Assembly (NCBI GenBank): GCA_964420575.1
Contig: CAYQTU010000002.1
Location: 18,534 to 82,533, forward strand
Length of the DNA stretch: 64,000 bases
From: an uncultured bacterium
GTDB taxonomy: Bacteria; Omnitrophota; Omnitrophia; Omnitrophales; Aquincolibacteriaceae
Direction: 5' to 3'
Translations under genes and position numbers: made by a program
The notes under the pieces: generated by a model
Seen by the model: only the letters and a program-made list of their open reading frames with translations
What the model was told of the DNA's origin: nothing
Database searches by the model: none
Shown: piece by piece, positions 9,708 through 27,824 of the stretch
How the letters are laid out: every line of letters starts with the position of its first letter
Position numbering within the stretch: the first letter of the stretch is position 1

Positions 9708-9811
9708 ATCCCTGAATAGGGATCCGCCAGGATACTGGCGGAGGCAAACCCGCCGAAAGGCGGGGACGCAAAACCACGGATCTAAATCTTCCTTAAGGGG
9801 GATAAGATGGC

Positions 9812-9853
9812 CGGGTTACCGATGAGAAAAACGGTAACCCGGTTTTTTATTTG
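9812..9853 (+). terminator. rho-independent terminator
   Basis: CCGGGTTACCG-loop-CGGTAACCCGG 11-bp stem followed by TTTTTTATTT. Confidence 0.7.
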
Positions 9854-10112: not shown

Positions 10113-10507
10113 TTCACGACCTAAAAGATCTTCGCGCCAAAAATAGCGCTGCCTATGACCTTATGGTGGAATTTTTGACAAGCGCCCGTGGTTCCAACCG
10201 GTTCTATGCGATCCGGAAATTTATGGAGCATCTTCTCCAGGAATGTTCCGAGAAGGAGATGGAAGCGGTGGATTTGAATGAAGTATTTCAGTTCGCTTTT
10301 TTCGGGTCCCATCTTTTGGTGATCCCTAAGGATCCTTTTGGGGATAACGATTTGCTGGTTTTGAAGAATTTTCGGGGAACTCATGATTTTGAATCCGAGC
10401 GGATTGTATTTTCGGAAGATTCTTTTAAAGTCGAGCCTTCGTTTTCGCTCAAGGACTATATCAAACGCTGTCTTTTAAGAGGAATTAACCGTGGATTTCT
10501 TTGTTAG
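10109..10507 (+). CDS. hypothetical protein
   Basis: 132-aa ORF translationally coupled to 9897..10112. Confidence 0.5.
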   Translation: MIHDLKDLRAKNSAAYDLMVEFLTSARGSNRFYAIRKFMEHLLQECSEKEMEAVDLNEVFQFAFFGSHLLVIPKDPFGDNDLLVLKNFRGTHDFESERIVFSEDSFKVEPSFSLKDYIKRCLLRGINRGFLC

Positions 10508-10988: not shown

Positions 10989-13900
10989 GTGAAGACTATT
11001 GGCTGGCTGAGATTCCGATTTGCGTTCAGGCTTATTTCTCTCGTTTTAATCCTAAGCCTCATTTCTTCGGATATTCTCTGGGCAAATCCCGTCTCCATGG
11101 TTCCATCTGCGGGGCAATCCGTCTATTCGCCGGGAACGGGTCTTGAGGGTTTTGCCCGTTTAAACGAATCCACTCGCTCCGATCAAAAAGATAAATCCCC
11201 GATTATCTACCACATTCAAGACGCGCATGCGGTCTTTGAAGCTCAACAAAACCTGGCGAAGATTGTTGAGGCGCTTATTCAGAAGGAAGGCATTGATCTT
11301 GTTTTGGTGGAAGGCGGTGCCGGGAATGTCAGCCTGACTTCTTTAAGGAGTCTAGCTTGGAAAAAAGTCCGTAAGCGCGTTGGCGAATCTTTTCTAAGGC
11401 AAGGAAAGATTACTGGCGAAGAATTCCTCGAACTTTCAAGCGATTATCCTTTTGAGCTTTATGGGATCGAAGACCCCGCGCTTTACCGCCAGAACCTGGA
11501 TGTTTTCTTAAGCGGCATCAGCAAAAAAGAGAAACTCTCAAAAGAGCTTGGGCGTCTTGATAGCGCTTTTTCGTCCCTGGAGTCATCCATTTATCCTTCC
11601 CGGTTTCGGGATCTCGAGGAACTGCGTTTGGCATGGCGGTTCGGGAAAGGAGATTTTCAGGTTTATCTCAATACCCTTCGCAAACTCATCAATGAATCTA
11701 AAGTCCCCGCGCATGATCTCCTGGAATGGCGTAAGCTCGGCAACTCCGAAACTGTGCGCTCCATTGACGCAGAGAAATTCCTGAAAGAGATAAACGTCCT
11801 TGAATCCAGACTCAGGGAGTCATTGCTTAATACTCAAGCGAAAAGGTTGTGGCGAGCACAGGAACACTTGAGGCTTCTCGGCCGTCTTTTTTCTTTCGAA
11901 CTCACTTCGGATGAGTACGCGCTTCTTAACGGTCAGCAGCATTTTGATTTAAAAAAGACTGGAGCCGATATCGAGCGTTTAATCCAGGATTCAGTGCATC
12001 TCCGAAAATCCTTCGCGTTTCTTCGCTCCGAATTCCCGGAATTTCTCAAGTTCTACGATCTTGCCCGGAAACGCGATAAAGCATTTATCAAAAATATTAA
12101 CTCTATCCTTCGGGAAAAACGGGAACGAAAAGTCATTCTTATCACCGGCGGTTTCCATTCGAAACATCTAGGAGCTTTGCTTAAAGAAGAGGGCATCTCC
12201 CGTATTTTAATCTCTCCCGAAATCACGGGAGCCAGTAAAAACATTGATTCTGATTACGCAAAGATTTTACGGGCGAAATCGAAATCCACGCTTCGCGCGC
12301 CGGCAACTTTGGGAAGCCCCTTCTATCCTGAACTCAAAATAACATTGGGGCGTGAGCAGGCAAAGGAACTCGGGGGGCATATCAAGCAGCTCATCAGTTT
12401 ACTGAATGTCGATCATCTGATGGCACCGGCTGCCTCGAAATCCGTTCTCCTTCGTTCCGAGCTTCGCATGGAATTATTCAATCATCTTGGTACATTTTTC
12501 GCTTTATCCAATAATGGGACGGCAGTCCATTGGATAGTCATAGGGAGCGCGGGTATCCTGGGTATCGGGATACTCGCGTTTCTCCTATCCAAGTGGAAGA
12601 AAAAACATAAAGCTACCCATCAAAATCCAGTTTTATTAGCTGATTCCGAGTATTCAAGCGACACGGAGCTTTCTTCTGATGAAAACAACGCCGATGAAGC
12701 CTTTGCAAACTTCGAAGCGACACTTGGTCACGCGGCTACTCCCGCGCAGGCATTTGCTTTTGAAAGCGGCCGGTTCTTCGGTTCAAGTTTTCCCGTCGCT
12801 TCTCAGGACCAGCATCTTCCGCCTCCGCCTCAGGAACTTCCTCTGCCGGTTCCGTTAAACGCGATCCCGGCGGATCTTGATCAAAAGGGAAAAACCGTGT
12901 TTGTGCTTCGTGAAGTTTTGCAGGCGATGGAAACGATGGATTCGACCATGCGCGGCCACCAGAAAGAATCCGCGGAACGCGCGATTCGCCGTGTCGTTTC
13001 GGAGGGGGACGGCACCCTCGATCACAGACGGTTCAGACAGTATCTCGAGGAAGACATTCATCAGTTTTTCGGGACTATCTTTCGGGAGATGCAGAAGCTT
13101 TCAACTACGCACAGAGAAACCGGAAATTATCAAGTCTCGGAGGAGATTGAAAAAGCGTTTCCCCGGTTCCCGCGCTATGTGAAATCCATTCTTAGCGAAA
13201 ACCCTGGTCTTAGCGAGGATGTTGAAGTCAGAGGGCTCATGAACCGGATCTCCGCGAAGCTTGGCGCAAGACCGCCCGTCGCAGAAGACCTCGGCGATTA
13301 CGTGGAACGTTCCTTTTCTCGGATCATGGAAGAGCGCGCTCAAACTCGGATGCCGGTTCTTCCCGTAGTCGAAACTCCCAAGCCCGCTCCTAAGAAGACC
13401 GTGGACCTTGGAAGAATTCAAGGACAGTTGCGGGATGTTCAAAGAATGCGGGAACGTTTTGAGGCGGATCAAATCAGTCTTCATGTGGAACTTACGCAAC
13501 TCGAGACGGAGTACCGGGAGCTTCAGGAAAGCATGGAGGATGCGAGACAAAAGAATGACACCGTGATACAGGAGGCGTTAGGCCCCTCCATTGACGCTTA
13601 TGAGAGCCGCATTCAACTTCTCCGGCATAACGATGGGGAGATAAAGGACCGTCTTCGCCAGATCAAAGGCGAGGAAGCGAAATTATCCGAGGAGCTGGAT
13701 GAGGCGACCGGGAGATCGGAACTGCGTGAGTTTCTTTCTTTCCCGATTGTATTTTCCTCGCTCGGGACCGGACTTCTCATGCTAACGGCTCTTTATCTGA
13801 CTAAGATCAATAGAGCCATACACCGGATCAGGGAGCTTACGGTAAAGAGCGGCAGGAGCTGGCCCTTTACATGGAAACAAGTCTTTGATGAAACCGTTCA

Positions 13901-16900
13901 TCTCAAAAAGGAGGAGAAACTCAGCATTTTTGACGGAACCTCGGAGCCTCCCGCTCAAGGGTTTGCCGGGTTTGGGGTATTTCTCGGCTGGGTCATTGGC
14001 GGTTGGGCTCTTTATCAGGCATATCACGGATGGGGTTGGAACACGGCTAAGATTCTACGCGGCGAGGGCGATAGCGCGTTTACTTTCGGGGGCTTGCTCT
14101 GGTGCCTTGAAATCTTTGCCGCGCCTATCGTTGGCGCGATCGTAGCTCCATTTTTAGCGTTCTTGGGAACTATCGCGATCAATCGCGGGAGAATGATTGC
14201 CCGCATTCTCAAATTCCCATTCGACTACGAAAAAGTTTTAGAACTTCATCTATCTGACTTTCATGCATATCACCAGCCTTTCTTGAAAAAAGCAGCCCGG
14301 TTTCTTTCCCACATGAAAAGCTCTACTCTTGAAACGATCCTTCGTGGCTGGTTCGATCGCGGGGAGGATGAAAAACTCAAAGCCGTTTTGGAGAAAAACG
14401 TTTGGTCCGGCGAAAATTACGCGCTCATTGCCCGGTTCCGGGACGAATTCGGTCTTAAGGAAGCGAAGAAAGCGCTTTTTACTGCCGCTGGCGAGGAGTT
14501 TGGGGGAAGACTTCTCCAAATCATTGATACGTTTAAAGCGGGGCTTATCGCGAAGAAGGTGAGCGGTGCTGGAATATTAAAGGACGTGATCCTCGAGGTC
14601 TTGAAGACCGAGAAAGAAAAACACATGGCGACGTACTGGATGACGCAGCTTATGTCCGATCCCGCGACTCCGTGGAACGCGGGTTTCGATAAAGTAAAAG
14701 CTTATTACGCGGTCCGGAAACGCGTGGATGTCTTGAAAACCGACGCCGCAAAAAAGTTCGGGCTCGATAAGGAGGATCTGGCTCAGGTTGATGCTCACAT
14801 CGGGAAATGGCGGGAGCGAATTCTCGCTCCGGAAAATAAGGTAACGGAACCTTCATGGGTGTGGTCGCTTATCTCGGAACTTCTCGGGAAAATCATCGCC
14901 CGTTCATCTACAAAAGTTTGGTTCATGCACATCCTCGAAAAATCCCATAGCTTGAACGCACCGTTTTTTGCACCGGCCAGGCAGCGGGAGCTGCTTTCGA
15001 GGCTTGACTGGCTCATTAATTACGAGATCGCGAAAAGCGATGTTTGGGCATCTGCGAGCGAATCTGAAAAGTCCGTTCTTTTAAGCGAGATGACGAGTCT
15101 TGAAGCTTTCCTTAAAGAAAACGGGGTGGATTACTCAATAGCTCTTCCGGATACTTTCACGAAAATCAAGGCTCTGAGTGCGCCAGAGCGGATCATGGTT
15201 CTTCGTGCCTTTAGAGGCCTGAATCCATCGGTCTACAAAAAAGATCCTCAGGCGGCGGGCCGTGCTTTTCAGCTTTTAGCGGACAAAGAAATACTGCGGG
15301 GGAGACTTGCCGCGAATAACGGATCGGCGGGGAGCATTCGCGAGCTTGAAGCGAGACTTGCCGTGCAAACTCCTGAGGACATTCAAACCCTTAAGAGTTG
15401 TTACGGCGTTCTCGCTGAAAAAGCGGACGCGAAAGCGCAGGGTGTTTTACTCGCGCTTGCCGCTCGCGCTCCTCCCGCGGTACTTCCTGTTTTTCTTAAG
15501 TCCTCGGATCATCTTGTGAGTTATTACGCGGCCCATCCCAAGGGCCGGGATTACGACAACCTTCCACTGTTGGCCGATGAATACCGGAAACGTTACGGCA
15601 GTCTTTTTTCCCTGAACGGGATTCTTCTTAATATCCTTACCGATCCCTCAAAACCTCAAGCTGTAAGAATTGAGGAAGCCGGGAAAACCATCGCGGGACA
15701 AGTCTTGGTCCGGATGGGATTTCCCGAAAACACGATCGGGGTCTGGGACAGCGTGAGCCCCGAGGAAATCATCCATGCGGTCGGGTACGAGGTCTTAAGG
15801 TATTCGGAAGAAAAGAAATCCGACGACGAGGAGAAACGAAGTTATTTCAGTCCCGAAGAAATCCGAGGCGAGGGCGAGAGATTCCTTCCGGCGCGGACCC
15901 GAAACCCGGTCGTGCGGAAAGCTCTCGAGAAAATGGGCCGGTTCGGTCTTTACAGCCACTGGGAAAGCGCAAGGCCCGCCTATTACCTTCAGTTTCTTGA
16001 AGACACGAAGGGTCTTGATCCCGAGTTCTTTAAACCCGGTGAAAAGGTTCGGGCCTCTTACGACGGCGAGTTCGTTTCTCCGAGGCGCGCAGGTTCTCTT
16101 GCTCCCATCAAAGATCCCATTCAGACCATGAAAGGCCTGATTCGAAATCTCCGGGACCGTTATCCGAATATTTACGACAATTTCATTGGTCCGAAGCGCG
16201 AGATCCTTGCCGGGAAACCTCTCGAGGATTTCATCACCGACGAGAAGAGTTTAATGTCCGTTGCCGGTCAGTTCCGCAAGAAAGTCGCGGATTGGCCTCT
16301 CTCCGAGGATGAACGCGTTGAAATGATGATACTTATTTATCAGGTGGCCTTTTCAAGCTCTCTTCAGCCTGTGCTAGGGAAATCCTCCGAGACGGAAGAA
16401 ACGAGGTACTGGCAGGACACTTTAAAAGCGTTTCAATCGGCAAGCGGTCTTAAGAAACAATCGGAGCTTTACCGAAACGTCACGGCCCGGATCAAGAAAC
16501 GAATCGATGAACTCATTGAGGAGGCCGGAGCGGGCCGCGAGGGAGTCGTTCAGTTTGTTTTGACGCGTGGTAGCGTCTCCGATTTCTTCAGGGGCGAGAT
16601 ATCGGAAGACTGCACTTCAGAGTTATGGAACATGCATTTTACGGACACGGTCGGTCTTCCGACCGATCCCGCGTTTTTATCGTTCCGTCTTGTCGAGAAC
16701 GGACGATGGATCGGAAACGCATACGCAATCGTGTTAAAAGACTCTTCCGGGAAATTCATTTTTTATCTGGATAACATTCCGGTCATGCTCAGGCACCCCG
16801 CGACAACCGTTCAGGTTAAATCCGATAAACTGATCCAGAATTTCTTCAAACAGTTGAAACCCGTTCTCGAGAACGCGGGCTTCGATTATTTCGTGATCGC

Positions 16901-19900
16901 GAACGATCCGTCCTCCCGCGCCAATCTCAGGACGTCCATAAAAGCGCTCGGCGGATCGGCAGAAACGAAGACCGTAACAAAACCCGGTGGATTCGGCGGG
17001 CAAAGCGAGTTCGGCGTATCAAGCGAATACATTCAAGGTCTCGGGACGTTATCTTCCTCGATTTCCGCGGCCGGCACCTGGATCACTCTCGATAACCGCT
17101 CGGCGCAGGCGCAGAAAAGCAAAGCGGAGCTTACCGCCCTTGAAAAACAGATTCAGGCGATGGAAGAAGACCGGAAACGCCTCGCGGCGCTCAAGGCCGA
17201 AAAAACGGGTCGCGCGAATCATCTTAAGACCGTTCTTCAAACGATCTCGCAGGGCTCGAAACGCGCGACAGCGCAGGCGCTTAATGAAGCGGCGCAAAAA
17301 GAAGAACTCGAAGCCGAGAGACTTTCCATCGAAACAAGAACGCTTGAAGAACAGGTGAAAGCGGTCCGGGGCCGTCTTACCGGGCTAAGGAATGAAGTAG
17401 CGCAAAGAAGCGAATTGAGAATGCCGGCTCTTTTAGCGCAATCGTTATTTCCTGATCTGTCTCCTGGGTTATTGCTCTTCGGACTCTGCGCCCTTCTTTT
17501 CGGCGGTCTCATAGTGATCCTCATCATTGACTGGTATAGCGAGCAAGTGAAGCGGGATGAGGAATATACCCGCTCCCTTGAAAGACATTCCGATGATTTT
17601 AGATACACTCTAAGACCGATTAATGAAACTCCCGGATGGATGAAGCATCCTCTCGTCGTCGAAGTTGGTGAGCTTTTCAAAACGGTTCTCGCGAATGTCT
17701 CTGCCGAGATCCGGGAACTCGTTCCACACCGCATTTTTTTACCGATCATGGGTTGGAGTATGGACCTTTCAAAAGAGGTCGTTAATGTCCTTTCCACGGC
17801 CCGGATCGTGCTTCTTGCCCTTAAGGAAAAAGGCTCGCTTATCCCGTTTCTAAAAGAGCAGCCTTACTATCAGAAATTCAAGGAGGAGGCCTCCGCGTTA
17901 GGTCTTGATCCCGAGTTTGATAAGCCGGGTCTTGTCTCGGAATTCGAGCTTTCCCGGCATAACGGCACAAAGATTTCTTTTGCGCTCGAAGTATCGGAAC
18001 GCACAGCGGACGATTTATTGCGCGGCGATATCAGCCGCGATTGCACCGGGCTTGGCGCGCACGCCGCGTTTTACGAAACAATCCCGCAATTTTTGCTCGA
18101 TCCCGGGTTCATTGATCTGAAACTCAGGATGCATGGAAGATGGGTGGGAAACGTTTACGTGATCGCGATGAAACGGGAAGGGAAACCCGTTCTTGTCATT
18201 GACGCCGTACAGCTGCATCCCAGTTTTGTGCTGTGGCCGATTCGTCCGGCGACGATTGCCGATGAAGCGGTGAAGCAGGTGACGGAATGGGCGAAAACGA
18301 AGAACTTCCAAGCTGTGTATATGAGCCGATTCATTTCAAACTTCTTTTATCTATACGACCATTTCGATCCGAAATACCCGCCCCAAAAAACCGAGATCGA
18401 GAAACTCGGAGGATTCAAGCACCTGAAAGCGCTCGGGCTTTGGGACGCGGACACTCGCCGCAATCAATACATCGAAACGTTTTCTCCGCACTGGAACGAA
18501 CCGCTAAGAGTGGACGCAAATAGCGCTCACCAGACACTTCTCCTTCGTCCTATTTGGAGCGCCGAAGCTCCAGCCCGTTCCGAAATGCGGACGGATAAGG
18601 TGTGGGATCTTGACGGATTCCATTTCGAAGTTCCGGAAAGCGATTTGAAGGGACTCCGCGGTGTGGAGGCGGAAAAGGAATCCAAGAATCAGAACCTGCT
18701 TTTGCGCGCTCTTGCGAGCAAGGAACTCGGTCTTTCGGCGGCGCTCAAGGAAGCGGTTCTTGATCCCGCCACGAAAATCCGGGTAAGAATCCATGACGAG
18801 ACAAAAACGGAACGCATTTATAAATTCATCATCGTTCGTCCCGACGGCCGCCGGAATTTCATTCTGGAAATCAATCCAAGAGGCGGGAAGTTCCATCCCT
18901 ATACCGAAGAGCTGAATCTTGTGGATACTGCGCTTATGACGGCCACGGATTCAACTGGGGAGGTGGATCTTCGGGATATTTTCACCAAGTTCGGGGAGCC
19001 GCCCGATCCTAAACTTCACGTGATCCCGTCCTTCGGAACCCTTTATGCACAGGAAATCCACAAGCACGGGTATGTGGACCAGGGCATGAAGATATTCGAT
19101 CTTACGATTAAGGACCATCCCACTCCGTCTATCCGGATCGCGACGAAAGCAAAGAACGCTTCCGAATTCTCGGGCGCAAAAGTGATTTATGATTTTAATT
19201 GGCAGAAGACGCCGTATGTTTTGGCTGTTTATTCTCCGGGAGCGGAGGTTTCGTTATCCGAACCTAGTACACCAATTCCTTCTGAAACCGTTGTTGTAGA
19301 AGCGCCGGTGAAAGCGGAAGCTCCAGAAGATTTAAGTCCGGTGAGCGTGCCGGAGCCTCCAGAGCCCGAAACTCCGGAGCCTGCGGCCGCAGTTGCTCAA
19401 AGCGCGGGAACAGCGGGAGTGTTGGGAGCGGGTGCCGCTTTCATCAAAGCGATCCTTGCCAAGAAACGGGAATCGTTATTTAAGGCCTCCATCCAGAAGA
19501 TTGAAAGAATCGGAAGCGATATTCTCGGGATTGCCCGGAAAGCCAAGGAAGCGGTAGAAACTGCTGTGGAACCCTCAGACCTTGACCGGCTGGAAGCCGA
19601 GCTTGCGTCTTCAGCAAGCGCGATTGACGAAGGCCTCGCCAAGCTCGAAGCGGAAGTCGCCAAATACAAAGACGGTTCGAAGGAAAGAACGGAACTTGAC
19701 GCTCTGAAACAAAAAATCAGCGGAGAAATCGAAGCGCTTAAGGAAGCGGATATTGCTCGCGAGGCTGCGGTTCAAGCGACAGATGATCACGCTAAAGCGG
19801 AGGAAATCTCCCAGGCCTTGGCCGAGGAATCCAGGAAATTAACCGCTCTGAAATCTCAGACTGATAAGGCCCGTGAAGAACTCGAGCGTTTAGAGCAAAA

Positions 19901-22900
19901 GACGCGGGATTTCACTACCCAGGAAAAGAAACGCAATGACCTGCTTAAAACCGTGGAGGAATTAAGCGCGCGGATCCGGGGAGAGGAAGAAACCCTTGCC
20001 GCTCTTAGCGAAAAAACCACGCAGGCCGAACGTGATCTGGAAGTCAAGAGATCCCAAGGGGAGACTCTCGCCCGGGAACTCGCCAGCCAGGAGTCCCGGC
20101 TTAAAGCGCTCCAAGCGGACCAGGAACAAGCGAGAACCGAGCTGACTGAAATCCTTTCGAAACTCAAATCCGCGAAACGCAGAGCTTCGGATTTAGCGAG
20201 AAAAACGAAGCAACTCGAAGAAATTTCGCGAAAGACCGAAGAAAAAGACCGGAAACTTTCCGCGAAAAACGATGAGCTTTCAAAAGCCGATCAAGCTCTG
20301 ACCGAAAAACAAAGATCTCTTCAGGCCCTCGATGAGACGTTAGCGGCTCGTGGCAGGGAAATCGCGGCCTTGGAAGAAAAAGCGGCAGGTCTTCGAACCG
20401 AAACCGAGGCGCTCGAACGGAGAAAAGAAACGCTTTCGAAATCGACTGAGGAGCTTGGCACGATGCAGTCCGAGGTATCCGCTGCCGAAGCCGAGCTTTC
20501 AGGGATCCGAAAACAGTACGAGGACGCAAAAGCCGAGTATGAGCGTGTTCTCGCGCTTAGCCGGGAGGAGCGCGGTAACCTAGCAACCATTCAGGCCGAA
20601 CTTTCAAAAGCACAGGAAGCGGCGCAGGCGATGGAAACGAAATTATCCGATCTGAAGGAGCAGGAGCGGAAAAGAGAAGCGCTACTTCGTCAAATCGCCG
20701 AGGCTGAAAGAGAGCTTGAAGTAAAGGCCGCTTCCTTAAAAGAGATAAACGCGGAACTTTTAAAACTCGATTCGAAGAAAACGGAGCAAATTCAAGACTC
20801 GGAAAAAACGGACTCTGAAATCGCGGCAAAAGCCGCGGAGCTTACCCAAGTCAAGGCGGAGACGGCAAAGCTTCAGAGCGACCTCGAAACTTTAAGAGGA
20901 AACATCGCATCGCTTCTGGGTGACATCGAAGCTAAAAAGCGGGAGGCCGCCGCTTTAGAAGAGGAAAAAGTCCGGCTGCTTGGGGAAGCGAAATCCATTG
21001 AAGAGAAAAACCGGGAGATTGAGGAAGCCCGGAGAAAATTAGAGGCCGAGCAAGCCGAAAGAACCAAGGCCGAGCAGGCGCTTGCTGAGGAACAAAGAAA
21101 AGCAAGTGATACGGCTCAGGGTCTTAAGACAGTCGGGGAACGTTTGAAACAGACTGTTCGTGATATCGCGGACCGCGAGACAAAAATCGCGGGTCTTACG
21201 TCTGAGGTTGAGACTGAGAAAGCGAAGACAAGACAGGCCGAGGCCGGGAAATCCCAAGCCGAGGCCGAGCGCGAGCAGCTTGAAGCGGATCTCACGCATG
21301 CACAGCAGGAGAAAAATGTTTTAGAGGAAGCTTTACGACAGGCCCAGAAAACTTCAAAAGCGACCGGAACTACCGATTCCGTGCTGGAAGGGCGGGAGAG
21401 CCTCGAAGCCCTTCTTTCGGAACTTCCCGAAAGTTTATGGCAGCTTCTCGGGCGTCATTTTCCGGGGCAGCATCAAACTTCCTTTCAACTCACGGTAAGT
21501 TCTGTCGCGAATGAACTCGCTAACGCGTGGAGCCGGAGCCCATTTTTCAGACGCATCATAAAAAATCTCGTGCTTTACCGTTCTCTTTATGTCTGGCTTC
21601 AAAAACAACCGTTCTATCGAGAGTTTAAGAAGGAAGCGGAAAAACTCGGGGTAAAATCCGATTTCGATAAACCGGGGGAATGGATCCGTTTTAATATTCC
21701 GGGCGATTCCGAAGGCTATTCTCTCGAACTTTCCAAAAGGGACGCGGAATATCTTCTTCGCGGATTCATGTCCGGGGACTGCACGAACTGCGGTCCCGGT
21801 TATGTGACAGGCTCATTCCTGACCGCTACCGCAAGCCACATCGTCGATCCCGGTTTCTTTAACTTCAAGATCTTGAGGAACGGCGAGTGGGTCGGGAATG
21901 TCTACGTGATGGCGATCCGCGAGAAAAATAAACCAGTGCTCGTAATCGATGCGATGCAGATTCCGTGGCAGAGCGCTTCTCCTCTTTTCATTCCTTTTGA
22001 TTTATCGCAGAGCAAGTTCCCGATCGTAAGTGAGAAGGACGCGATCACGTTGGCGGACGCGGTGATTCGTGCGCTGTCCGAATACTCCTCAAAAGCCGGG
22101 TTCCAGGAGCTTTGGCTCTCGAGCTTCGTTTCCAATTTCAGCGCGCTCAAACATCATTTCTATGGCGCTAACCAAGATGAATTTGATAAGCGCGTAACCG
22201 GGGAAGCGAAGATCGGCGGCTGGAGTGCGTTAAAAGCGCTCGGGTACGAAGGTCATCCTTATGTGGAATCTATTGGGAACCCCGAAGCGAAGAAAGTCTG
22301 GGAAGCGGAGGAAGTGCCGCCTCCAACTCAAGTTGAACCGCCAAAAGTCACTCCATCCACTCCAGAACAGCCCGTTAAAGGAACCCAGAATATTAAAGGT
22401 CTTGTTCAGCAGATAAGAGAAAGCGTCATGTTCTCGTACGGGAACATTGTCCCTCGCGGCATGGAATTCGTCGTGAAAGCACCGGGAGCCGGAGTACGGT
22501 GGATCGCTTTTGATGAAACGGCCAATGAATGGAGACTTTACGAGAAAGCGAATGGCAGAACCGAGAGTTATCCCTTATTTGAGATAGGAAGCGGTGTTCG
22601 CCAGCAATCCGGAACTCTCAATCTTTCAGTCATTGCTGTGGAACGCGGCGGAAAGAGGATTCCTGTCATCAGATTCTTGATGCTTCCGCCCATTAAACCC
22701 GGAATTCTTGAAACGCACGTTGAAGAAGGCGGAGCTATTTTCGAGGAATCGGGTGAGATGAAAGTAATGCCTTTTACGAAGAAAGGCTTCATCGTGGACG
22801 ATTCCCGTGGCGCGTTCTTTGTCCATCCGGGCGGAGACCAAGGTCTTGATTCGAAGGAAAATATCTCATTGCCACTTTCGAATCATTATGACGTGAGCCG

Positions 22901-25900
22901 TTCAAGGTTCCCGACCGCGAAATTCATTCTTGGGTGGCACACGAACCCCGGAGGAGAGCCCGCGCTTCACTCCGAAGAAGAAAACGAGATAATCCGTTCC
23001 AATGTCGAAGGCTTCCAGCTTGTCGCGAGCCCAAAGGGTATTTCTCTTGTCAGGTATTACAAAGAGGGAGAAGCATGGAAGAAAAGAACCCTTTTCACGA
23101 AAACACTGAATGAGGATTGGGCGAGCGATCTTGAAGCGGCGTTACAGGCGGAACTGGACGACAACGTTAATTTCTCGGCATCCGGGTTCCAGTTAAAGCT
23201 GGAGGACCGGAAGCTTCTTGACGTGGCTCTTGAGGAAGGCTCCAAATCCGCGTCACGGAACATCAAACCCGAGATCGAAAGACTACGATTTGACCTGACC
23301 ACTTATTACGAACTTGTGCCGGAGTCGCTACTCTCGTTTATTCAAGATTCGGATTTTAAGCTTGTCGTGGTTCGTCCCAAAACCCCAAGGGGAGAAAGAG
23401 CGCCTCCCATGGGTCTTGGCGTGTATCTCGGAAAACCGGGGCGTGATGTGTTCGCATCATTCAACGTCGCTCCGAAGGAAGACGCGGATGGTTTCGATGT
23501 CACAATTTATGTTGGAAATGGTATTTACGAACTTGCCGGTGAAAAAGAACGCCTTGAAATCATCGCGCACGAGCTTTATCAAGCTTTTAAGGTTGTCAGC
23601 GCCCAAAATCCAAGGAAATATCAGGCTGACATCGATCTTGAGATCAAGATCGATCAGGAAATCCGAAACGCCGAAGCGTGGGAGGCCCGGATTCCGAATG
23701 AGGAACGAGCGGACCTCGGTTTGATCGGCGGCGTGGCGAATAGAACGAACGCGCATGTCCGGGCCCGCGCATTTGCCCGGTTGCTTGGTTCAAAAAGCTC
23801 GGACGGTGTCGGGACGACTTATACCGCGCTTCTCAGGAACGCATGGGCGCTTGCCCGTAGGTTCTCAGGGAACGTTTCTCAAGAGGATACTCTAAATCCC
23901 GTTCCGCCCGTTTCTCACGATGCGTTTCGTTATACCCAGGACAGTTATCAGAATGTGGTGAGCCCGGAAAGTCTCAAGACTCTTTTTGAGATGAGCGCCT
24001 ACGTTCATGAGAACAAAGAAGAAGACCTCCTTCAATTTTTAGATCGAAAGATCGAGGATGGGAAACGCGTTCTTCTTTTCAACACGAACGCTCCGACCCC
24101 TTGGATTTTGAAGGACCTCAGGAAGATCGTCGAAGGTCTTTCCGCGGAAGGGAAACTCGGGACGCTTTATATCGATTTGCCGCCCGAAAGCCAGCGCTTA
24201 ATCGATGAATTTTTGCGGACCGGGCAAAGCTCCGAGAAACTTTCGAAAATTCTCGCGACCCGTTTCCCGGTCTTTCTCCCGCGCGAGTTTCAAAGACCCG
24301 ATTTGTACGAAAATCTTCTGCGCGCGGTTTACGAATTCAATCTTGAGGCGCGTGATTCGCAGAAAATAAAGGTGGTTGCTTATTACCGGGGCCGGATGCT
24401 TCCGTCCATGCCGGGACCGGGACAGGTTCCAGGCCGGCCGGGCAATGTTCCGCAGCCACCCGCTGGGTTCCCATTTGGGAACGCCGGTGAAAACGAGTTT
24501 CCCGCCGTGATGCCGCGGATGAACGAGCTGCCGTTCGCTCAAGGGATGTCTCTTCCTCCGCTTCCGCTTACGCCGGGGGTGAGAGAAGCGTTTAGCAGCG
24601 CTCTCTCTGAAGCCGGGAGGAATCAAGGGATTGCAATATTCATAAAACCTTTGGATGAGTTTCTGCCGGAGGATCTTGTCAGGAATCCGGAAGTCGCTTC
24701 CATTCTTCAGATCGATAAATACACAGGATTCGGTCCTGAGAAACCCGAGAATAAACTCGCGCTTTATATGTCGGAGCAAGCCTCTCCGAACCAGAAATCC
24801 TTCGCACTTCCCATTGGTTCGGAAGCGCCGTTCTATGAGGAATCCATTAATCCCGGCCTTCCTGGAGGAATGCGTTTTAATGAGTTTAACGCGTACCCGG
24901 ACCTGATCCTGAGCACGGCGGGAGACGGAGAAGATACGTTTGAACCCACTCCCGACGAGCTTGTTCCCGACGAAATCGCGCCGCTTGTTCCGGTAGGGAG
25001 CCGTTCCGAACTCAGGTTGCAAACGACACCGGCCGCTATAAAAGCTCTTCATGAAAGAAAAGCGGCCATTCGTGAGCTTTCGCGGATCGGGGAGCCTGCT
25101 GTGGGTCCTTTGATCGAGGCTCTCAATTTCCCGAGCGTATCTGTGCAACTGGGCGCAATCCAAGCGCTTGGCGCGATTGGAAGCGCGCGGGCCGTGAACC
25201 CCATAAACCATGTTGCCCAGGCCGCCGCATTAAAAGACGCGGCTCGGCTCGCGGTCGAGGAGATAAAAAGCAAGACGCCCGTGCCATCGAAGCGGGAACC
25301 GAACCATCATCAGCCGGTTCCTCAAATCCCGTCCGGGCGTTCCATTTATTCTTCCTTTAACAGTACTCGTTCCGACGAATTTATCCGTGTTCTTTTGAAA
25401 GCCGCTCCGATTGCCCTTGATATCGATGCCGAGACATTGATCCGGAAAGAACACGGGCGACTTTCTCTTTCCGGCTGGGGATTCGTGGAAGCCATTAAGT
25501 CTCTTGAGCGGAAACTTCCGGACGAGCTTTTGGGGCGGATACAGATCCGTGTGATCAATCTGAATCCCGAACTTCGCGAGGAAGAGATTCGGCGCGCGTT
25601 TGGAATCACGCCGGAACTTCAGAGCCTGATCCGGATCGAGAATGTGCCCGTCCGCCACCGCGCGTTTAAAGGTCTTGGAAATTTCCTCGAGAAAACAGCG
25701 CTTAAGATCGGTTCTGAGAAAAACCAGGCGCTTTGGAAAGACAGTCTCGACATTCTGGTGGAGAACCCGCGGCCAAGCGAAGTAATCGACGGCAGAAAGC
25801 TGTTCCTTACGGCGCTGCTTCATAAAACGCTTCGTTCCAGGATTTCGGAGGCTCTGAAAGCCGTCGTCGTCCGGTTGCTTCACGAACTCGGGGAAAGCTC

Positions 25901-26006
25901 GTTCATGGCCCCGGTTCATTTCAGTTCCGAGAACCGGAGCGCGCTTGGCCTTGAGTTTGTCGCGGAGCTGGACCGGGTCAATAAGCTTCTGGCGACAATG
26001 GCATAG
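10989..26006 (+). CDS. giant 5005-aa secreted/membrane-anchored multidomain protein
   Basis: Single uninterrupted frame of 15,018 nt; GTG start. N-terminal signal-peptide-like MKTIGWLRFRFAFRLISLVLILSLISSDILWANP. Several internal TM helices; Pro-rich linkers; a triplicated ~170-aa module with G-x-S-x-DCT / DPxF / NGxWVGNxYV motifs; coiled-coil of ~680 aa; C-terminal HEAT/PBS-lyase-like repeats (PAVGPLIEALN...VQLGAIQALGAIGSARAV). Minus-strand ORFs inside are short. Confidence 0.8.
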   Translation: MKTIGWLRFRFAFRLISLVLILSLISSDILWANPVSMVPSAGQSVYSPGTGLEGFARLNESTRSDQKDKSPIIYHIQDAHAVFEAQQNLAKIVEALIQKEGIDLVLVEGGAGNVSLTSLRSLAWKKVRKRVGESFLRQGKITGEEFLELSSDYPFELYGIEDPALYRQNLDVFLSGISKKEKLSKELGRLDSAFSSLESSIYPSRFRDLEELRLAWRFGKGDFQVYLNTLRKLINESKVPAHDLLEWRKLGNSETVRSIDAEKFLKEINVLESRLRESLLNTQAKRLWRAQEHLRLLGRLFSFELTSDEYALLNGQQHFDLKKTGADIERLIQDSVHLRKSFAFLRSEFPEFLKFYDLARKRDKAFIKNINSILREKRERKVILITGGFHSKHLGALLKEEGISRILISPEITGASKNIDSDYAKILRAKSKSTLRAPATLGSPFYPELKITLGREQAKELGGHIKQLISLLNVDHLMAPAASKSVLLRSELRMELFNHLGTFFALSNNGTAVHWIVIGSAGILGIGILAFLLSKWKKKHKATHQNPVLLADSEYSSDTELSSDENNADEAFANFEATLGHAATPAQAFAFESGRFFGSSFPVASQDQHLPPPPQELPLPVPLNAIPADLDQKGKTVFVLREVLQAMETMDSTMRGHQKESAERAIRRVVSEGDGTLDHRRFRQYLEEDIHQFFGTIFREMQKLSTTHRETGNYQVSEEIEKAFPRFPRYVKSILSENPGLSEDVEVRGLMNRISAKLGARPPVAEDLGDYVERSFSRIMEERAQTRMPVLPVVETPKPAPKKTVDLGRIQGQLRDVQRMRERFEADQISLHVELTQLETEYRELQESMEDARQKNDTVIQEALGPSIDAYESRIQLLRHNDGEIKDRLRQIKGEEAKLSEELDEATGRSELREFLSFPIVFSSLGTGLLMLTALYLTKINRAIHRIRELTVKSGRSWPFTWKQVFDETVHLKKEEKLSIFDGTSEPPAQGFAGFGVFLGWVIGGWALYQAYHGWGWNTAKILRGEGDSAFTFGGLLWCLEIFAAPIVGAIVAPFLAFLGTIAINRGRMIARILKFPFDYEKVLELHLSDFHAYHQPFLKKAARFLSHMKSSTLETILRGWFDRGEDEKLKAVLEKNVWSGENYALIARFRDEFGLKEAKKALFTAAGEEFGGRLLQIIDTFKAGLIAKKVSGAGILKDVILEVLKTEKEKHMATYWMTQLMSDPATPWNAGFDKVKAYYAVRKRVDVLKTDAAKKFGLDKEDLAQVDAHIGKWRERILAPENKVTEPSWVWSLISELLGKIIARSSTKVWFMHILEKSHSLNAPFFAPARQRELLSRLDWLINYEIAKSDVWASASESEKSVLLSEMTSLEAFLKENGVDYSIALPDTFTKIKALSAPERIMVLRAFRGLNPSVYKKDPQAAGRAFQLLADKEILRGRLAANNGSAGSIRELEARLAVQTPEDIQTLKSCYGVLAEKADAKAQGVLLALAARAPPAVLPVFLKSSDHLVSYYAAHPKGRDYDNLPLLADEYRKRYGSLFSLNGILLNILTDPSKPQAVRIEEAGKTIAGQVLVRMGFPENTIGVWDSVSPEEIIHAVGYEVLRYSEEKKSDDEEKRSYFSPEEIRGEGERFLPARTRNPVVRKALEKMGRFGLYSHWESARPAYYLQFLEDTKGLDPEFFKPGEKVRASYDGEFVSPRRAGSLAPIKDPIQTMKGLIRNLRDRYPNIYDNFIGPKREILAGKPLEDFITDEKSLMSVAGQFRKKVADWPLSEDERVEMMILIYQVAFSSSLQPVLGKSSETEETRYWQDTLKAFQSASGLKKQSELYRNVTARIKKRIDELIEEAGAGREGVVQFVLTRGSVSDFFRGEISEDCTSELWNMHFTDTVGLPTDPAFLSFRLVENGRWIGNAYAIVLKDSSGKFIFYLDNIPVMLRHPATTVQVKSDKLIQNFFKQLKPVLENAGFDYFVIANDPSSRANLRTSIKALGGSAETKTVTKPGGFGGQSEFGVSSEYIQGLGTLSSSISAAGTWITLDNRSAQAQKSKAELTALEKQIQAMEEDRKRLAALKAEKTGRANHLKTVLQTISQGSKRATAQALNEAAQKEELEAERLSIETRTLEEQVKAVRGRLTGLRNEVAQRSELRMPALLAQSLFPDLSPGLLLFGLCALLFGGLIVILIIDWYSEQVKRDEEYTRSLERHSDDFRYTLRPINETPGWMKHPLVVEVGELFKTVLANVSAEIRELVPHRIFLPIMGWSMDLSKEVVNVLSTARIVLLALKEKGSLIPFLKEQPYYQKFKEEASALGLDPEFDKPGLVSEFELSRHNGTKISFALEVSERTADDLLRGDISRDCTGLGAHAAFYETIPQFLLDPGFIDLKLRMHGRWVGNVYVIAMKREGKPVLVIDAVQLHPSFVLWPIRPATIADEAVKQVTEWAKTKNFQAVYMSRFISNFFYLYDHFDPKYPPQKTEIEKLGGFKHLKALGLWDADTRRNQYIETFSPHWNEPLRVDANSAHQTLLLRPIWSAEAPARSEMRTDKVWDLDGFHFEVPESDLKGLRGVEAEKESKNQNLLLRALASKELGLSAALKEAVLDPATKIRVRIHDETKTERIYKFIIVRPDGRRNFILEINPRGGKFHPYTEELNLVDTALMTATDSTGEVDLRDIFTKFGEPPDPKLHVIPSFGTLYAQEIHKHGYVDQGMKIFDLTIKDHPTPSIRIATKAKNASEFSGAKVIYDFNWQKTPYVLAVYSPGAEVSLSEPSTPIPSETVVVEAPVKAEAPEDLSPVSVPEPPEPETPEPAAAVAQSAGTAGVLGAGAAFIKAILAKKRESLFKASIQKIERIGSDILGIARKAKEAVETAVEPSDLDRLEAELASSASAIDEGLAKLEAEVAKYKDGSKERTELDALKQKISGEIEALKEADIAREAAVQATDDHAKAEEISQALAEESRKLTALKSQTDKAREELERLEQKTRDFTTQEKKRNDLLKTVEELSARIRGEEETLAALSEKTTQAERDLEVKRSQGETLARELASQESRLKALQADQEQARTELTEILSKLKSAKRRASDLARKTKQLEEISRKTEEKDRKLSAKNDELSKADQALTEKQRSLQALDETLAARGREIAALEEKAAGLRTETEALERRKETLSKSTEELGTMQSEVSAAEAELSGIRKQYEDAKAEYERVLALSREERGNLATIQAELSKAQEAAQAMETKLSDLKEQERKREALLRQIAEAERELEVKAASLKEINAELLKLDSKKTEQIQDSEKTDSEIAAKAAELTQVKAETAKLQSDLETLRGNIASLLGDIEAKKREAAALEEEKVRLLGEAKSIEEKNREIEEARRKLEAEQAERTKAEQALAEEQRKASDTAQGLKTVGERLKQTVRDIADRETKIAGLTSEVETEKAKTRQAEAGKSQAEAEREQLEADLTHAQQEKNVLEEALRQAQKTSKATGTTDSVLEGRESLEALLSELPESLWQLLGRHFPGQHQTSFQLTVSSVANELANAWSRSPFFRRIIKNLVLYRSLYVWLQKQPFYREFKKEAEKLGVKSDFDKPGEWIRFNIPGDSEGYSLELSKRDAEYLLRGFMSGDCTNCGPGYVTGSFLTATASHIVDPGFFNFKILRNGEWVGNVYVMAIREKNKPVLVIDAMQIPWQSASPLFIPFDLSQSKFPIVSEKDAITLADAVIRALSEYSSKAGFQELWLSSFVSNFSALKHHFYGANQDEFDKRVTGEAKIGGWSALKALGYEGHPYVESIGNPEAKKVWEAEEVPPPTQVEPPKVTPSTPEQPVKGTQNIKGLVQQIRESVMFSYGNIVPRGMEFVVKAPGAGVRWIAFDETANEWRLYEKANGRTESYPLFEIGSGVRQQSGTLNLSVIAVERGGKRIPVIRFLMLPPIKPGILETHVEEGGAIFEESGEMKVMPFTKKGFIVDDSRGAFFVHPGGDQGLDSKENISLPLSNHYDVSRSRFPTAKFILGWHTNPGGEPALHSEEENEIIRSNVEGFQLVASPKGISLVRYYKEGEAWKKRTLFTKTLNEDWASDLEAALQAELDDNVNFSASGFQLKLEDRKLLDVALEEGSKSASRNIKPEIERLRFDLTTYYELVPESLLSFIQDSDFKLVVVRPKTPRGERAPPMGLGVYLGKPGRDVFASFNVAPKEDADGFDVTIYVGNGIYELAGEKERLEIIAHELYQAFKVVSAQNPRKYQADIDLEIKIDQEIRNAEAWEARIPNEERADLGLIGGVANRTNAHVRARAFARLLGSKSSDGVGTTYTALLRNAWALARRFSGNVSQEDTLNPVPPVSHDAFRYTQDSYQNVVSPESLKTLFEMSAYVHENKEEDLLQFLDRKIEDGKRVLLFNTNAPTPWILKDLRKIVEGLSAEGKLGTLYIDLPPESQRLIDEFLRTGQSSEKLSKILATRFPVFLPREFQRPDLYENLLRAVYEFNLEARDSQKIKVVAYYRGRMLPSMPGPGQVPGRPGNVPQPPAGFPFGNAGENEFPAVMPRMNELPFAQGMSLPPLPLTPGVREAFSSALSEAGRNQGIAIFIKPLDEFLPEDLVRNPEVASILQIDKYTGFGPEKPENKLALYMSEQASPNQKSFALPIGSEAPFYEESINPGLPGGMRFNEFNAYPDLILSTAGDGEDTFEPTPDELVPDEIAPLVPVGSRSELRLQTTPAAIKALHERKAAIRELSRIGEPAVGPLIEALNFPSVSVQLGAIQALGAIGSARAVNPINHVAQAAALKDAARLAVEEIKSKTPVPSKREPNHHQPVPQIPSGRSIYSSFNSTRSDEFIRVLLKAAPIALDIDAETLIRKEHGRLSLSGWGFVEAIKSLERKLPDELLGRIQIRVINLNPELREEEIRRAFGITPELQSLIRIENVPVRHRAFKGLGNFLEKTALKIGSEKNQALWKDSLDILVENPRPSEVIDGRKLFLTALLHKTLRSRISEALKAVVVRLLHELGESSFMAPVHFSSENRSALGLEFVAELDRVNKLLATMA

Positions 26007-26018: not shown

Positions 26019-27824
26019 ATGATTACCATGGAGAAGAAGAAACCGGAGAATGGTATTTCTGAGGAAGATAAGATCTATTTAAACGTTATCGAGAAAGCGG
26101 CTTTTGAAGGGTTTGCGAAACTCATCGATCCGGTCACGGAATTCCCGGTGGATATTGCGTCCGTTACGGGCGGGAATCTCGAATGGGATTATAAAAATCC
26201 GTATCGCAGCAAAACCTCTCCCACCAATATCGCGCTTGGATTCTTGTATGTATTGCTCGCTTGCGAAAGAGGCTTTATCAGTTGGGTAAAGACATACGAA
26301 CACGCGCTTCGGATGTTTGGGATGCTCAGGCTTTTGGAAACGTTCGAAGGATTTCATTACAACTGGTATTACCTAAACGGGAAAAGCGAGACGGTGCCTG
26401 TCGTGACGTATAACCGTTTTATCTCGTCGGTAGATAACGGCAACCTCGATATTGCGCTTATGATCGTCGCGGAATATTTCAAGAACTCGACTCTCGCGAA
26501 AAAAATACATAAACTGCTTGTAAACAGGGACTACCGTTTCTTTTTTGATAAGAACCCGAGCCGGCCGGGAAATCAAATGATAAGCGTGGGGTTTGACGCA
26601 CGGAAGGAGCAGTTCACTCCCTCCGATTACTCGGTTTTTAATACAGAAGCGCGAATGATGGTTCTGCTTTCGGTTTTGAAGGACCATGTTCCGGAATCCG
26701 CGTGGAAAAAACAATCTAGGCTTGTACGTACTTACAAAACCACGGAAGGAGAAATTATTCCAGTCGTGGCTCCTTGGGGCGGCAATCTCTTTGAAGGACT
26801 CTTTGCGGATGAACTGATTGGGGGAGATAGAATTGCGCCGAAAGCGTTTCTTTCGAATGCGCTTAATTTAATCAAAATCCATCAGGATTACGGGAAACGA
26901 ATCTCGGAATCCGGGATTTGGGGGATCTCAAATGGGGAAGTGCCGGGAGAGGATCGTTACGAGATGGCGGGAGTAAGAGACATTGCTTACAGCCAGTTCC
27001 CCGGCGAGTTCGTTACACCGTACTCGACTTTTCTTGCGCTTAAATACGATACCGCTGCTGCCATAGAAAATTTGAGGAAGATGGAAGAGCTGAATCCCGA
27101 TAGCTTTAACCGGAATTTCGGGTTTGTCGATTCCCTCGATCCCAAGACCGGCGTAATTAACCGAAACATTCTGAGCCTTGATAAAGGAATGGAATGTTTG
27201 GCGCTTGGGAATTTCCTGAACGCTATGGATGGAAAGAAAAGGACTTCCGATTATTTCCAGGATTATTTGAAAAACTGTCTTTGGCGCGAGAAAGCGGAAA
27301 AACTTTTGAAGGATGAAGAACGCCATCCTTCGTTTCAGGCGCTATCGGTTACGGGAAAACGCACGAAAAGAATCCAAGCGTCCTTTGTGATCTATATCCT
27401 TGGCCTTGAACGGGAGATCGTATCTTTTAAGGGCGAGGGAAAAGCGAAGGCCGAGTTTGAAATCGTTGGAAATCAAAGCAATAAAACACTGTGTGTGCTC
27501 TATGACGTCAGTGAGCGGTATTCTTTCTCGGGGATCTCACTTCGGATGACGGAAATTGGCATCGAACCTTTTGAGAATCTTCTTTTTACAATAAAAGGCA
27601 ATGAAAGACTCGGGATTCCAAAAACCATAAAAGTGGATCTCAAATGGAAAGGCGAGCTGATTCAATTCGGACATTTTCCAATAACGAAAGACTGGACCAC
27701 TGCGAGCCTTTCTTGTCCCTCGTATCCGAAGAGGCTGGATGAAATCTCCTTTGTCTTTGAGAATTCGGCAGTGGGAGACGATTTAAGTGGGGAGATTTAT
27801 ATACAAGCGCTGGCTTTGAAATGA
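26019..27824 (+). CDS. putative glycoside-hydrolase-like protein (six-hairpin / glucoamylase- or DUF3131-like)
   Basis: 601 aa; motifs SPTNIALGFLYVLLACERGFISW, GFHYNWYYLNG, GFVDSLDPKTG...LSLDKGMECLALGNFLNAM reminiscent of (alpha/alpha)6-barrel glycosidases; family assignment untested. Confidence 0.4.
   Translation: MITMEKKKPENGISEEDKIYLNVIEKAAFEGFAKLIDPVTEFPVDIASVTGGNLEWDYKNPYRSKTSPTNIALGFLYVLLACERGFISWVKTYEHALRMFGMLRLLETFEGFHYNWYYLNGKSETVPVVTYNRFISSVDNGNLDIALMIVAEYFKNSTLAKKIHKLLVNRDYRFFFDKNPSRPGNQMISVGFDARKEQFTPSDYSVFNTEARMMVLLSVLKDHVPESAWKKQSRLVRTYKTTEGEIIPVVAPWGGNLFEGLFADELIGGDRIAPKAFLSNALNLIKIHQDYGKRISESGIWGISNGEVPGEDRYEMAGVRDIAYSQFPGEFVTPYSTFLALKYDTAAAIENLRKMEELNPDSFNRNFGFVDSLDPKTGVINRNILSLDKGMECLALGNFLNAMDGKKRTSDYFQDYLKNCLWREKAEKLLKDEERHPSFQALSVTGKRTKRIQASFVIYILGLEREIVSFKGEGKAKAEFEIVGNQSNKTLCVLYDVSERYSFSGISLRMTEIGIEPFENLLFTIKGNERLGIPKTIKVDLKWKGELIQFGHFPITKDWTTASLSCPSYPKRLDEISFVFENSAVGDDLSGEIYIQALALK

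Follow-up and report, generated by a model that had tools for sequence, protein, structure and literature searches.

The stretch of DNA analysed here, referred to as the window, comprises 64,000 nucleotides of a contig from an uncultured bacterium of the Omnitrophota (GenBank assembly GCA_964420575.1, contig CAYQTU010000002.1, positions 18,534 to 82,533 of the forward strand). It carries a giant open reading frame (ORF) on the + strand (10989..26006), which opens with a GTG start and encodes, in a single frame, a protein of 5,005 amino acids (aa). A short peptide, RSE[L/M]R, recurs in this protein at aa 489, 909, 2140, 2530 and 4672 and divides it into six modules; we refer to these sites as delimiters.

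An earlier inspection of the DNA letters and ORF translations, termed here the sequence-only reading, had described one uninterrupted + strand frame with no rival ORF above ~340 aa. Both statements are borne out: no internal stop occurs across the 5,005 codons, and the largest rival ORFs within 10989..26006 measure 337, 229 and 186 aa. By simple arithmetic, the chance of an open frame of this length is ~(61/64)^5005, or ~e^-240. That reading had also raised the concern of an assembly chimera or a frameshift. A chimera, or genes artificially fused through sequencing errors, would be in keeping with the metagenomic source of the sequence and the resemblance of the modules to separate proteins. 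However, a 5,012-aa relative from an independent assembly (P0003) aligns in a single BLASTP segment, from query residues 89-5005 to subject residues 1-5012, at 56% identity. The same architecture is seen end to end in a second relative (P0004) and on two independent metagenome contigs with collinear relatives (L012 and L021), while the GC content is even across the ORF (0.50-0.54) and the junction motifs are conserved and in frame. Since P0003 is collinear end to end in an independent assembly, the ORF is not a chimera, and this explanation is effectively refuted. The GTG start is likewise supported, because the leader (basic residues, a hydrophobic core and [S/Y]D[LIV]xWA) is kept at the N-termini of the family. 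The suspected link to the Omnitrophota also holds, as a homolog is encoded in the metagenome-assembled genome (MAG) 'Candidatus Omnitrophota bacterium SO_2016_GW1_117', and the named relatives of a flank gene (59539..60336) all belong to this phylum, with up to 80% identity. The ORF is a real gene, carried by a member of the Omnitrophota, and its product belongs to a family of giant, modular proteins of the membrane that is rare.

The features of the protein, in order along the gene, are as follows:

10989..11084, + strand: N-terminal leader, aa 1-32, with a basic n-region, a hydrophobic core (hydropathy peak at aa 12-30) and the ending SDILWA-N
11166..12452, + strand: module 1 domain, aa ~60-488, a candidate ChaN/Tiki-superfamily domain, predicted periplasmic
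12453..12467, + strand: delimiter 1, RSELR, aa 489-493, kept in P0003 and P0004
12534..12590, + strand: transmembrane (TM) helix, aa 516-534, Kyte-Doolittle value 2.37, with KWKKKHK after it
13392..13583, + strand: short coiled coil, aa 802-865
13713..13727, + strand: delimiter 2, RSELR, aa 909-913
13731..14174, + strand: polytopic hydrophobic region, aa 915-1062, ~3-4 helices by Kyte-Doolittle peaks; homologs conserve query residues 993-1260
15906..17018, + strand: GNAT-like 'DCT' domain, copy A, aa ~1640-2010, from internal repeat and alignment
17055..17423, + strand: coiled coil, aa 2023-2145
17406..17420, + strand: delimiter 3, RSELR, aa 2140-2144
17472..17528, + strand: TM helix, aa 2162-2180, Kyte-Doolittle value 3.03
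17775..18575, + strand: GNAT-like 'DCT' domain, copy B, aa 2263-2529
18576..18590, + strand: delimiter 4, RSEMR, aa 2530-2534; stand-alone DCT homologs stop 7-10 residues ahead of it
18591..19298, + strand: uncharacterised domain, aa 2535-2770, conserved in P0003, P0004 and P0005, with no family match
19302..19397, + strand: Pro/Glu-rich linker, aa 2772-2803
19446..21425, + strand: long coiled coil, aa 2820-3479, with SMC/Rad50-type coiled-coil noise only in NCBIfam
21504..22358, + strand: GNAT-like 'DCT' domain, copy C, aa ~3506-3790, from internal repeat and alignment
22476..23168, + strand: MPN/JAMM-like region, aa ~3830-4060, with the degenerate metal site LGWHTNPGG...S..E
23175..25001, + strand: conserved region, aa 4063-4671, including Pro/Gly-rich aa 4467-4499, with no family match
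25002..25016, + strand: delimiter 5, RSELR, aa 4672-4676
25056..25238, + strand: HEAT repeats, aa ~4690-4750, with HEAT_2 above its cut-off
25359..26003, + strand: C-terminal domain, aa 4791-5005, predicted HAD/FCP1-like Rossmannoid fold

Module 1 comprises the exported ChaN/Tiki-like candidate domain, and module 2 a TM anchor, a cytoplasmic domain and the short coiled coil. A polytopic membrane segment, a helical region, GNAT-like copy A and a coiled coil make up module 3, while module 4 consists of a TM helix and GNAT-like copy B. Module 5 holds the uncharacterised domain, the 660-aa coiled coil, GNAT-like copy C, the degenerate MPN-like region and the conserved region, the last of which is 38-58% identical to P0004, P0012 and P0013. 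Module 6 is formed by the HEAT repeats and the HAD-like C-terminal domain.

Outside these five sites, the RSE[L/M]R peptide is absent from all six frames of the window, and the codons used differ from site to site; it is therefore the peptide, and not the DNA, that is conserved. The motif stands at the same junctions in P0003, P0004, P0005 and P0012, with five sites in P0003, three in P0005 and six in P0012, while P0004 (6,509 aa) possesses an additional module of ~1,300 aa together with one additional delimiter. Across 14 loci, frames of at least 1,000 aa contain 28 sites in 35,854 residues, whereas the shorter frames contain three in 87,612 residues, all of them within two giant-gene pieces truncated by contig ends or gaps. 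The residues flanking the motif are not conserved at these loci. A TM-grade hydrophobic segment follows the delimiter within 45 aa at 12 of 31 sites, compared with 6% of random positions. Furthermore, stand-alone homologs of the DCT domain, of 450-520 aa, stop 7-10 residues short of the delimiter position, and the similarity of the window protein to two otherwise unrelated giants (L016 and L019) starts at aa 4681-4686, 5-10 residues past the last delimiter, so that the HEAT and HAD-like module is a shared cassette. To judge from their placement and codon usage, the five sites are located at module junctions and selected at the peptide level, and the junctions behave like natural protein ends.

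The two giants that share this cassette (L016 188..10627 and L019 14..10639) are midasin-like, with four to five AAA_5 domains, a VWA domain and HEAT repeats, and they carry the same HAD-like C-terminal domain and RSELR delimiters. When the last module served as query in a word-indexed search, generic HEAT proteins dominated the result and its true relatives were not recovered.

Recombination sites, translated ribosome-binding sites and internal starts were considered as origins of the motif at the DNA or RNA level and rejected, as the codons differ and no upstream sequence is shared. A related explanation is that the motif marks a point for module exchange by recombination, as VENN does in CdiA and PxxxxDPxGL in Rhs proteins, whether or not it has a function in the mature protein. 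Modules have indeed been shuffled at these sites, as illustrated by the extra module and site of P0004 and by the last module shared with the AAA_5-VWA giants, and the gene rides on a mobile element. This explanation is disfavoured by the codon variation, which leaves no shared DNA for homologous or site-specific recombination; only 15 nucleotides are involved, and the flanks are unconserved at the protein level. Shuffling at junctions would be equally expected if the junctions were natural protein ends, and we regard a role as exchange point as improbable.

More distant members of the family lack RSELR, and other short motifs are over-represented in them, at equivalent junctions where these were checked:

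P0007: GLEE, 6 observed, 0.27 expected
P0028: GLEE, 6 observed, 0.42 expected
P0009: SSP[LIV], 4 observed, 0.14 expected
P0006: SSS[LIV], 3 observed, 0.15 expected
P0033 (6,788 aa): DGG, 19 observed, 1.76 expected (p 7e-14)

In an unbiased k-mer scan, GLEE was the top 4-mer of P0007, RSEL/SELR that of P0012, and DGG the top 3-mer of P0033. The last of these proteins also carries an N-terminal Peptidase_C39 domain (E 1.2e-7), a family that cuts after Gly-Gly, and P0033 is likely to be a self-processing giant polyprotein. In addition, the delimiters of these relatives are often followed by textbook signal peptides, with n-, h- and c-regions and AxA sites, thousands of residues into the ORF. Internal Sec-type signal peptides of this kind lie at aa ~3071 of P0009, ~2094 and ~1538 of P0008, ~2232 of P0028, ~154 of P0022 and ~434 of P0011. 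A junction of P0011 (AVSSL) near aa 1000 is followed, by eye, by a lipobox-like signal. A sortase-type sorting signal (motif, TM segment and basic tail) was also considered and rejected, because the relatives display signal-peptide geometry, with the basic residues ahead of the hydrophobic core and AxA behind it.

With a confidence that falls a little short of even, we favour the reading that the window protein is a polyprotein, cut at its RSE[L/M]R delimiters by a putative lineage-specific protease to release subunits. The presence of the delimiter at junctions, the stand-alone homologs that end there, and the combination of C39 domain and DGG sites in P0033 suggest such processing. The gene product would in effect unite a whole operon in one protein. 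It would be inserted into the inner membrane, the protease would cut at or near RSE[L/M]R and signal peptidase would probably also cut at the N-terminal leader, whereupon six proteins, some membrane-anchored and others soluble, would be released in fixed stoichiometry and assemble at the membrane. A broader proposal, which we hold more tentatively, is that Omnitrophota-type giant ORFs are true bacterial polyproteins with a lineage-specific delimiter code (RSE[LMVI]R, GLEE, SSP[LIV], DGG), dedicated proteases that recognise it, and internal signal peptides that would start to work once the chain has been cut.

Several observations weigh against the polyprotein reading. No RSELR-specific protease was identified. 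In the MPN-like motif of the protein, the second His is replaced by Asn, and an HExxH-like stretch reads HELYQ on inspection by eye. Pfam, NCBIfam and related profile scans of the giant ORF revealed no active protease domain. The hydrophobic segment is absent after two of the five delimiters here and after more than half overall, and the topology is derived from hydropathy only. Module 1 is missing from P0012, yet this protein keeps six RSELR sites. The motif is looser in the Omnitrophota MAG relative P0013 (RNELR, RSEFH, RKEMR and RAEMR), the gene of which lies outside any conjugative element. The GNAT-like domains lack a conserved Gly where the acyl-CoA loop Q/R-x-x-G-x-G/A (between β4 and α3) would be found in their alignment. 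Finally, RSE[L/M]R could just as well serve for docking or as a hinge. Candidate proteases are the DUF2201 peptidase encoded at 40206..41315, in trans, and module 1, in cis.

The main rival to the polyprotein is an intact giant membrane-anchored scaffold, in which RSE[L/M]R would serve as a docking, regulatory or hinge motif in the linkers and no cleavage would occur. The docking partner could be the HEAT module of the protein itself, or the MoxR and VWA proteins encoded nearby. HEAT repeats are peptide-binding scaffolds, and the module that combines them with the C-terminal domain is the sole part common to all giants of the RSELR clade. Furthermore, MoxR AAA_5 and VWA functions are repeatedly encoded next to these genes or as part of them, the motif has the shape R-x-x-x-R, the locus has two links to cyclic diguanylate (c-di-GMP) (discussed below), and no cognate protease turned up. 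A scaffold would, however, leave unexplained the canonical AxA signal peptides directly after the delimiters of relatives, the stand-alone homologs that end at the delimiter position and the double-glycine peptidase in the DGG-punctuated relative. It appears somewhat unlikely to us.

The overall architecture agrees in most respects with what the sequence-only reading had described. Hydrophobic segments were called by the Kyte-Doolittle method (19-residue window, threshold >1.6), and the peaks, at aa 12-30, 516-534, 915-938, 1030-1060 and 2162-2180, lie near the positions given there for a signal-type N-terminus and widely spaced helices; the leader is also conserved across the family. Pro-rich linkers were located at aa 598-635, 2772-2803, 3771-3801 and 4467-4499, the second of them containing the PEPPEPETPEP stretch that had been pointed out. 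The long coiled coil, placed by that reading at nt 19450-21500, was recovered as a Pro-free, heptad-type segment of ~660 aa. Its HEAT-like C-terminal repeats also stand, with HEAT_2 at E 6e-9 and 36.5 bits (cut-off 27.7) and HEAT_PBS at 22.7 bits (cut-off 20.9). Apart from the HEAT repeats, Pfam and NCBIfam returned nothing but coiled-coil noise for the whole protein.

The leader is likely a Sec signal peptide or a signal anchor. Its ending, [S/Y]D[LIV]xWA, is common to the window protein, P0004, P0012, P0009, P0028, P0032 and an ORF of locus L006, even among giants of otherwise unrelated architecture, and may represent a dedicated targeting signal. Two further domain assignments are offered as leads. 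Module 1 scores 13.9 bits against PF04187, below the cut-off of 27.7 (E 0.054), while three of five orthologs give hits to this family, likewise below threshold (best E 1.5e-4); HxxDAH...E and GGFH motifs were noted by eye, and searches of PDB sequences gave no match. On this basis a ChaN/Tiki-superfamily domain is a lead. Similarly, aa ~3830-4060 may be a degenerate MPN/JAMM-like region. The window protein reads H-T-N-P...S-E-E-E at the putative site and lacks the intact E...HxHx7Sx2D metal site of MPN+/JAMM metalloproteases, whereas the relatives P0007 and P0030 have HxH. Prok-JAB was matched in one of five homologs (E 0.053), and a PDB profile search returned no match.

Tiling the protein against itself revealed a domain of ~300 aa in three copies (A, B and C), with 34% identity between B and C (E 1e-43). 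The motifs RGxxSxDCT, DPxF, WxGNxY and KxGG are invariant in this domain, and a GNAT α/β fold is predicted. This DCT domain differs from the GNAT superfamily in that it has no Pfam GNAT match and no Q/RxxGxG/A CoA loop, and in that it possesses its own set of invariant motifs and a long helical N-terminal extension. No match was found among Pfam, NCBIfam or curated GNAT profiles, nor among 72,556 plasmids. A word-indexed search of 5.8 billion proteins yielded two relatives, and an exhaustive profile search of 1.84 billion representatives yielded 174, of which 28 had E <= 1e-30. The best relatives are themselves giants of 2.5-7.6 thousand aa (kaa), while ten weaker ones have no Pfam domain at all. 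We weakly suggest that the three domains might transfer acyl or aminoacyl groups, by means of a cofactor site that departs from the canonical one.

One locus (L001 9081..11212, GCA_053938425.1, 28% GC) contains two adjacent stand-alone genes with one DCT domain each, which also fits junctions that act as natural protein ends. Proteins of 485 aa and 70 aa and a ThiF-type E1-like protein are encoded in the same operon, which may hint that DCT domains are linked to ubiquitin-like or sulfur-carrier systems.

For the C-terminal 215 residues, a Rossmannoid HAD/FCP1-like fold is predicted. Motif I reads [DE]xD[AV]x[ST], with a one-residue insertion relative to DxDx[TV], and the second Asp alone is invariant. 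Compared with the FCP1/SCP1-type phosphatases and their inactive relative TIM50, motif I is one residue longer here, and its first acidic residue is Glu in some relatives. Since motifs II-IV are not evident in the alignment of the domain, phosphatase activity is doubtful. The domain was also considered as the delimiter protease and rejected, given its HAD-like fold and the lack of an invariant Ser, Cys or His.

The region upstream of the giant gene, and the transfer region downstream of it, contain the following features:

9734..9824, + strand: c-di-GMP-I-GGC variant riboswitch, 68.5 bits (gathering score 59)
9897..10112 (71 aa) and 10109..10507 (132 aa): small ORFs after the riboswitch, with no family match
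10767-10795, + strand: promoter-like TTGAAA-17-TATACT, upstream of the start of the giant gene
10844-10907, + strand: four direct copies of ACTCAGCCA, with one inverted copy at 10579-10587
~30.9-55.1 kb of the window: conjugative transfer region, inside a higher-GC island

The riboswitch lies ~1.2 kb upstream of the giant gene and is followed by a U-rich hairpin. ACTCAGCCA occurs five times, against 0.22 expected, and the promoter-like site and the array are a candidate promoter and operator of the giant gene itself. The riboswitch as a family-wide regulator was rejected, as it was not found in the homologous loci L005-L007. Directly upstream of the Omnitrophota MAG homolog lies a gene for a GGDEF/HD-GYP response regulator (L006 721..2475), among neighbours that are otherwise housekeeping genes; by its predicted domains, this regulator is a second, independent c-di-GMP link.

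These c-di-GMP links bear on the idea, close to that of the sequence-only reading, that the protein is a classical giant surface adhesin or exoprotein, largely extracellular, comparable to LapA/RTX-type adhesins controlled by c-di-GMP. The signal-type leader, the riboswitch 1.2 kb upstream and the long coiled-coil 'stalk' would all fit, and giants of the Omnitrophota have been interpreted as extracellular effectors in some published accounts. However, no adhesin, Ig-like, RTX, dockerin, β-helix or lectin repeats, and no CPD domain (the internal cysteine protease of MARTX toxins), were matched in the libraries scanned (Pfam and NCBIfam). The two small ORFs and the separate promoter-like site stand between the riboswitch and the giant gene. 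GNAT-like domains, HEAT repeats and HAD-like folds are typically cytoplasmic, and the recognisable folds of the protein are of this type; the degenerate MPN-like motif noted by eye, a lead only, would be in line with them. The presence of several internal TM helices, followed by basic residues, points to a protein threaded through the inner membrane. Because of these fold types and helices, the adhesin explanation is disfavoured, and we give it little likelihood. The description of the protein as 'cell-surface or envelope-spanning' is likewise not supported as stated, since the protein is predicted to be membrane-anchored, with module 1 (aa ~33-490) alone clearly predicted outside the cytoplasm, and the stand-alone DCT homologs that were inspected have, by eye, no obvious N-terminal signal peptide or TM segment.

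Downstream of the giant gene lie genes for a glucoamylase-like protein, LacI, a Replic_Relax relaxase, a coupling protein (T4CP) and a MoxR AAA_5 ATPase, followed further downstream by those for a DUF2201 metallopeptidase-VWA protein, DUF932, TraC/VirB4, VirB6, VirB9 and VirB10. The GC content is 0.45-0.54 over ~6-59 kb, which includes the giant gene, compared with 0.35-0.42 in the sequence on either side, and no integrase gene turned up within the window. With TraC at most 27% identical to any protein of the PLSDB plasmids, the type IV secretion system (T4SS) of the element is only distantly related to those of known plasmids. The order of giant gene, (glucoamylase-like) LacI, relaxase and coupling protein is also found at the P0012 locus (L007/L022), and of the 12 metagenome loci that a search with the C-terminal domain brought up, 10 have the same gene order. 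Exceptions to the linkage with transfer genes are the Omnitrophota MAG locus (L006/L018) and L019. On the strength of this synteny, the giant gene is a conserved neighbour of one set of conjugative-element genes, and is probably part of this family of elements. The synteny with transfer genes also weakly suggests that the complex assembled from a cleaved polyprotein would serve the mobile element, in envelope remodelling or in cell-cell contact during transfer.

Other observations concern the neighbouring genes. Two adjacent paralogs without a Pfam match (36487..37593, 368 aa, and 37622..38680, 352 aa) both match one gene of L007, at 42% and 39% identity. Upstream of the P0012 giant at L007 lies a 2,091-aa gene of the Rhs/Tc-toxin type (1565..7840; SpvB, TcdB_toxin_midN and RHS repeats). 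A 90%-identical copy of the glucoamylase-like gene of the window lies downstream of the L016 giant, and for the window neighbour at 26019..27824 no gene with exactly the same product is on record.

Giant proteins of the Omnitrophota have been described previously. In their main text, West-Roberts et al. 2023 (bioRxiv 10.1101/2023.11.21.568195) proposed proteolysis of such giants, with cleavage points unknown, and Nielsen & Lui 2026 (bioRxiv 10.64898/2026.06.07.730766) catalogued proteins of at least 10 kaa, noted their GNAT, HAD and HEAT content and mobile flanks, and suppressed internal signal-peptide calls as (chunking) artefacts. As far as these main texts portray them, the published giants resemble the window protein in their phylum, single very long ORF, signal-type leader and TM helices, in their mosaic of GNAT-type, HEAT and HAD-type domains, in their surroundings rich in mobile DNA, and in suspected proteolysis. 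By the same accounts they differ from it in several respects: at 5 kaa the window protein falls below the catalogue threshold of 10,000 aa; it has no dockerin, TSP3, C39 or SecA and almost no Pfam-detectable content; and its gene lies beside a T4SS conjugation cluster, whereas theirs are flanked by type II secretion system (T2SS) or pilus genes and glycoside hydrolases. The giant gene is a smaller, conjugation-linked variant of this known kind. A term search of the main texts of both papers found no mention of inter-module delimiter motifs; 'polyprotein' occurs in neither main text, 'cleavage' is absent from that of Nielsen & Lui, and 'motif' appears in West-Roberts et al. only in the reference list. 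Literature searches for RSELR returned only software names, and those for polyprotein and Omnitroph nothing relevant. Hence, within these sources, the delimiter code appears to be undescribed.

Among established systems, the viral polyproteins (Flaviviridae, picornavirus-like) use internal signal or TM segments to set topology and signal-peptidase cuts. The present family resembles them in its single ORF, its short, lineage-varying sites between units and, in the relatives, its internal signal peptides; it differs in that the gene is that of a bacterium or mobile element, in that no RSELR protease domain was identified in cis, and in that cleavage is putative. C39 double-glycine leader processing, and the C39-bearing Omnitrophota giants, find a parallel in P0033, with its C39 domain and 19 DGG sites, so that an arrangement of protease plus repeated site is, by its predicted domain content, present within the family; the window protein itself lacks a C39 domain and uses RSE[L/M]R rather than GG as delimiter. 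In MARTX toxins, an internal cysteine protease domain frees effector modules at short inter-module sites. These toxins are also modular proteins of several kaa, while here no RTX repeats, CPD domain or type I secretion system (T1SS) signal were detected and the chemistry of the site differs.

The delimiters, the triplicated domain and the conjugative neighbourhood, all of which had been missed in the sequence-only reading along with the HAD-like C-terminus, are more informative than the size of the protein. The delimiters bear on whether the giants of the Omnitrophota act as single chains or as cut pieces, and RSELR offers a first concrete candidate site for the possible cutting of such giant bacterial proteins. 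The motifs at the junctions, including those of other lineages and of the C39/DGG relative, are concrete, mutable sites. They also provide rational split points for structure prediction of giants, and the internal signal-peptide calls that are now discarded as artefacts may be real. The analysis also connects a giant-protein gene with a conjugative element and establishes a new family of GNAT-like domains, present here in triplicate. If the polyprotein reading is true, the RSELR enzyme would be a new site-specific protease, and the window gene would be a mobile, conjugation-linked case in which a whole membrane complex is delivered as one translation product.

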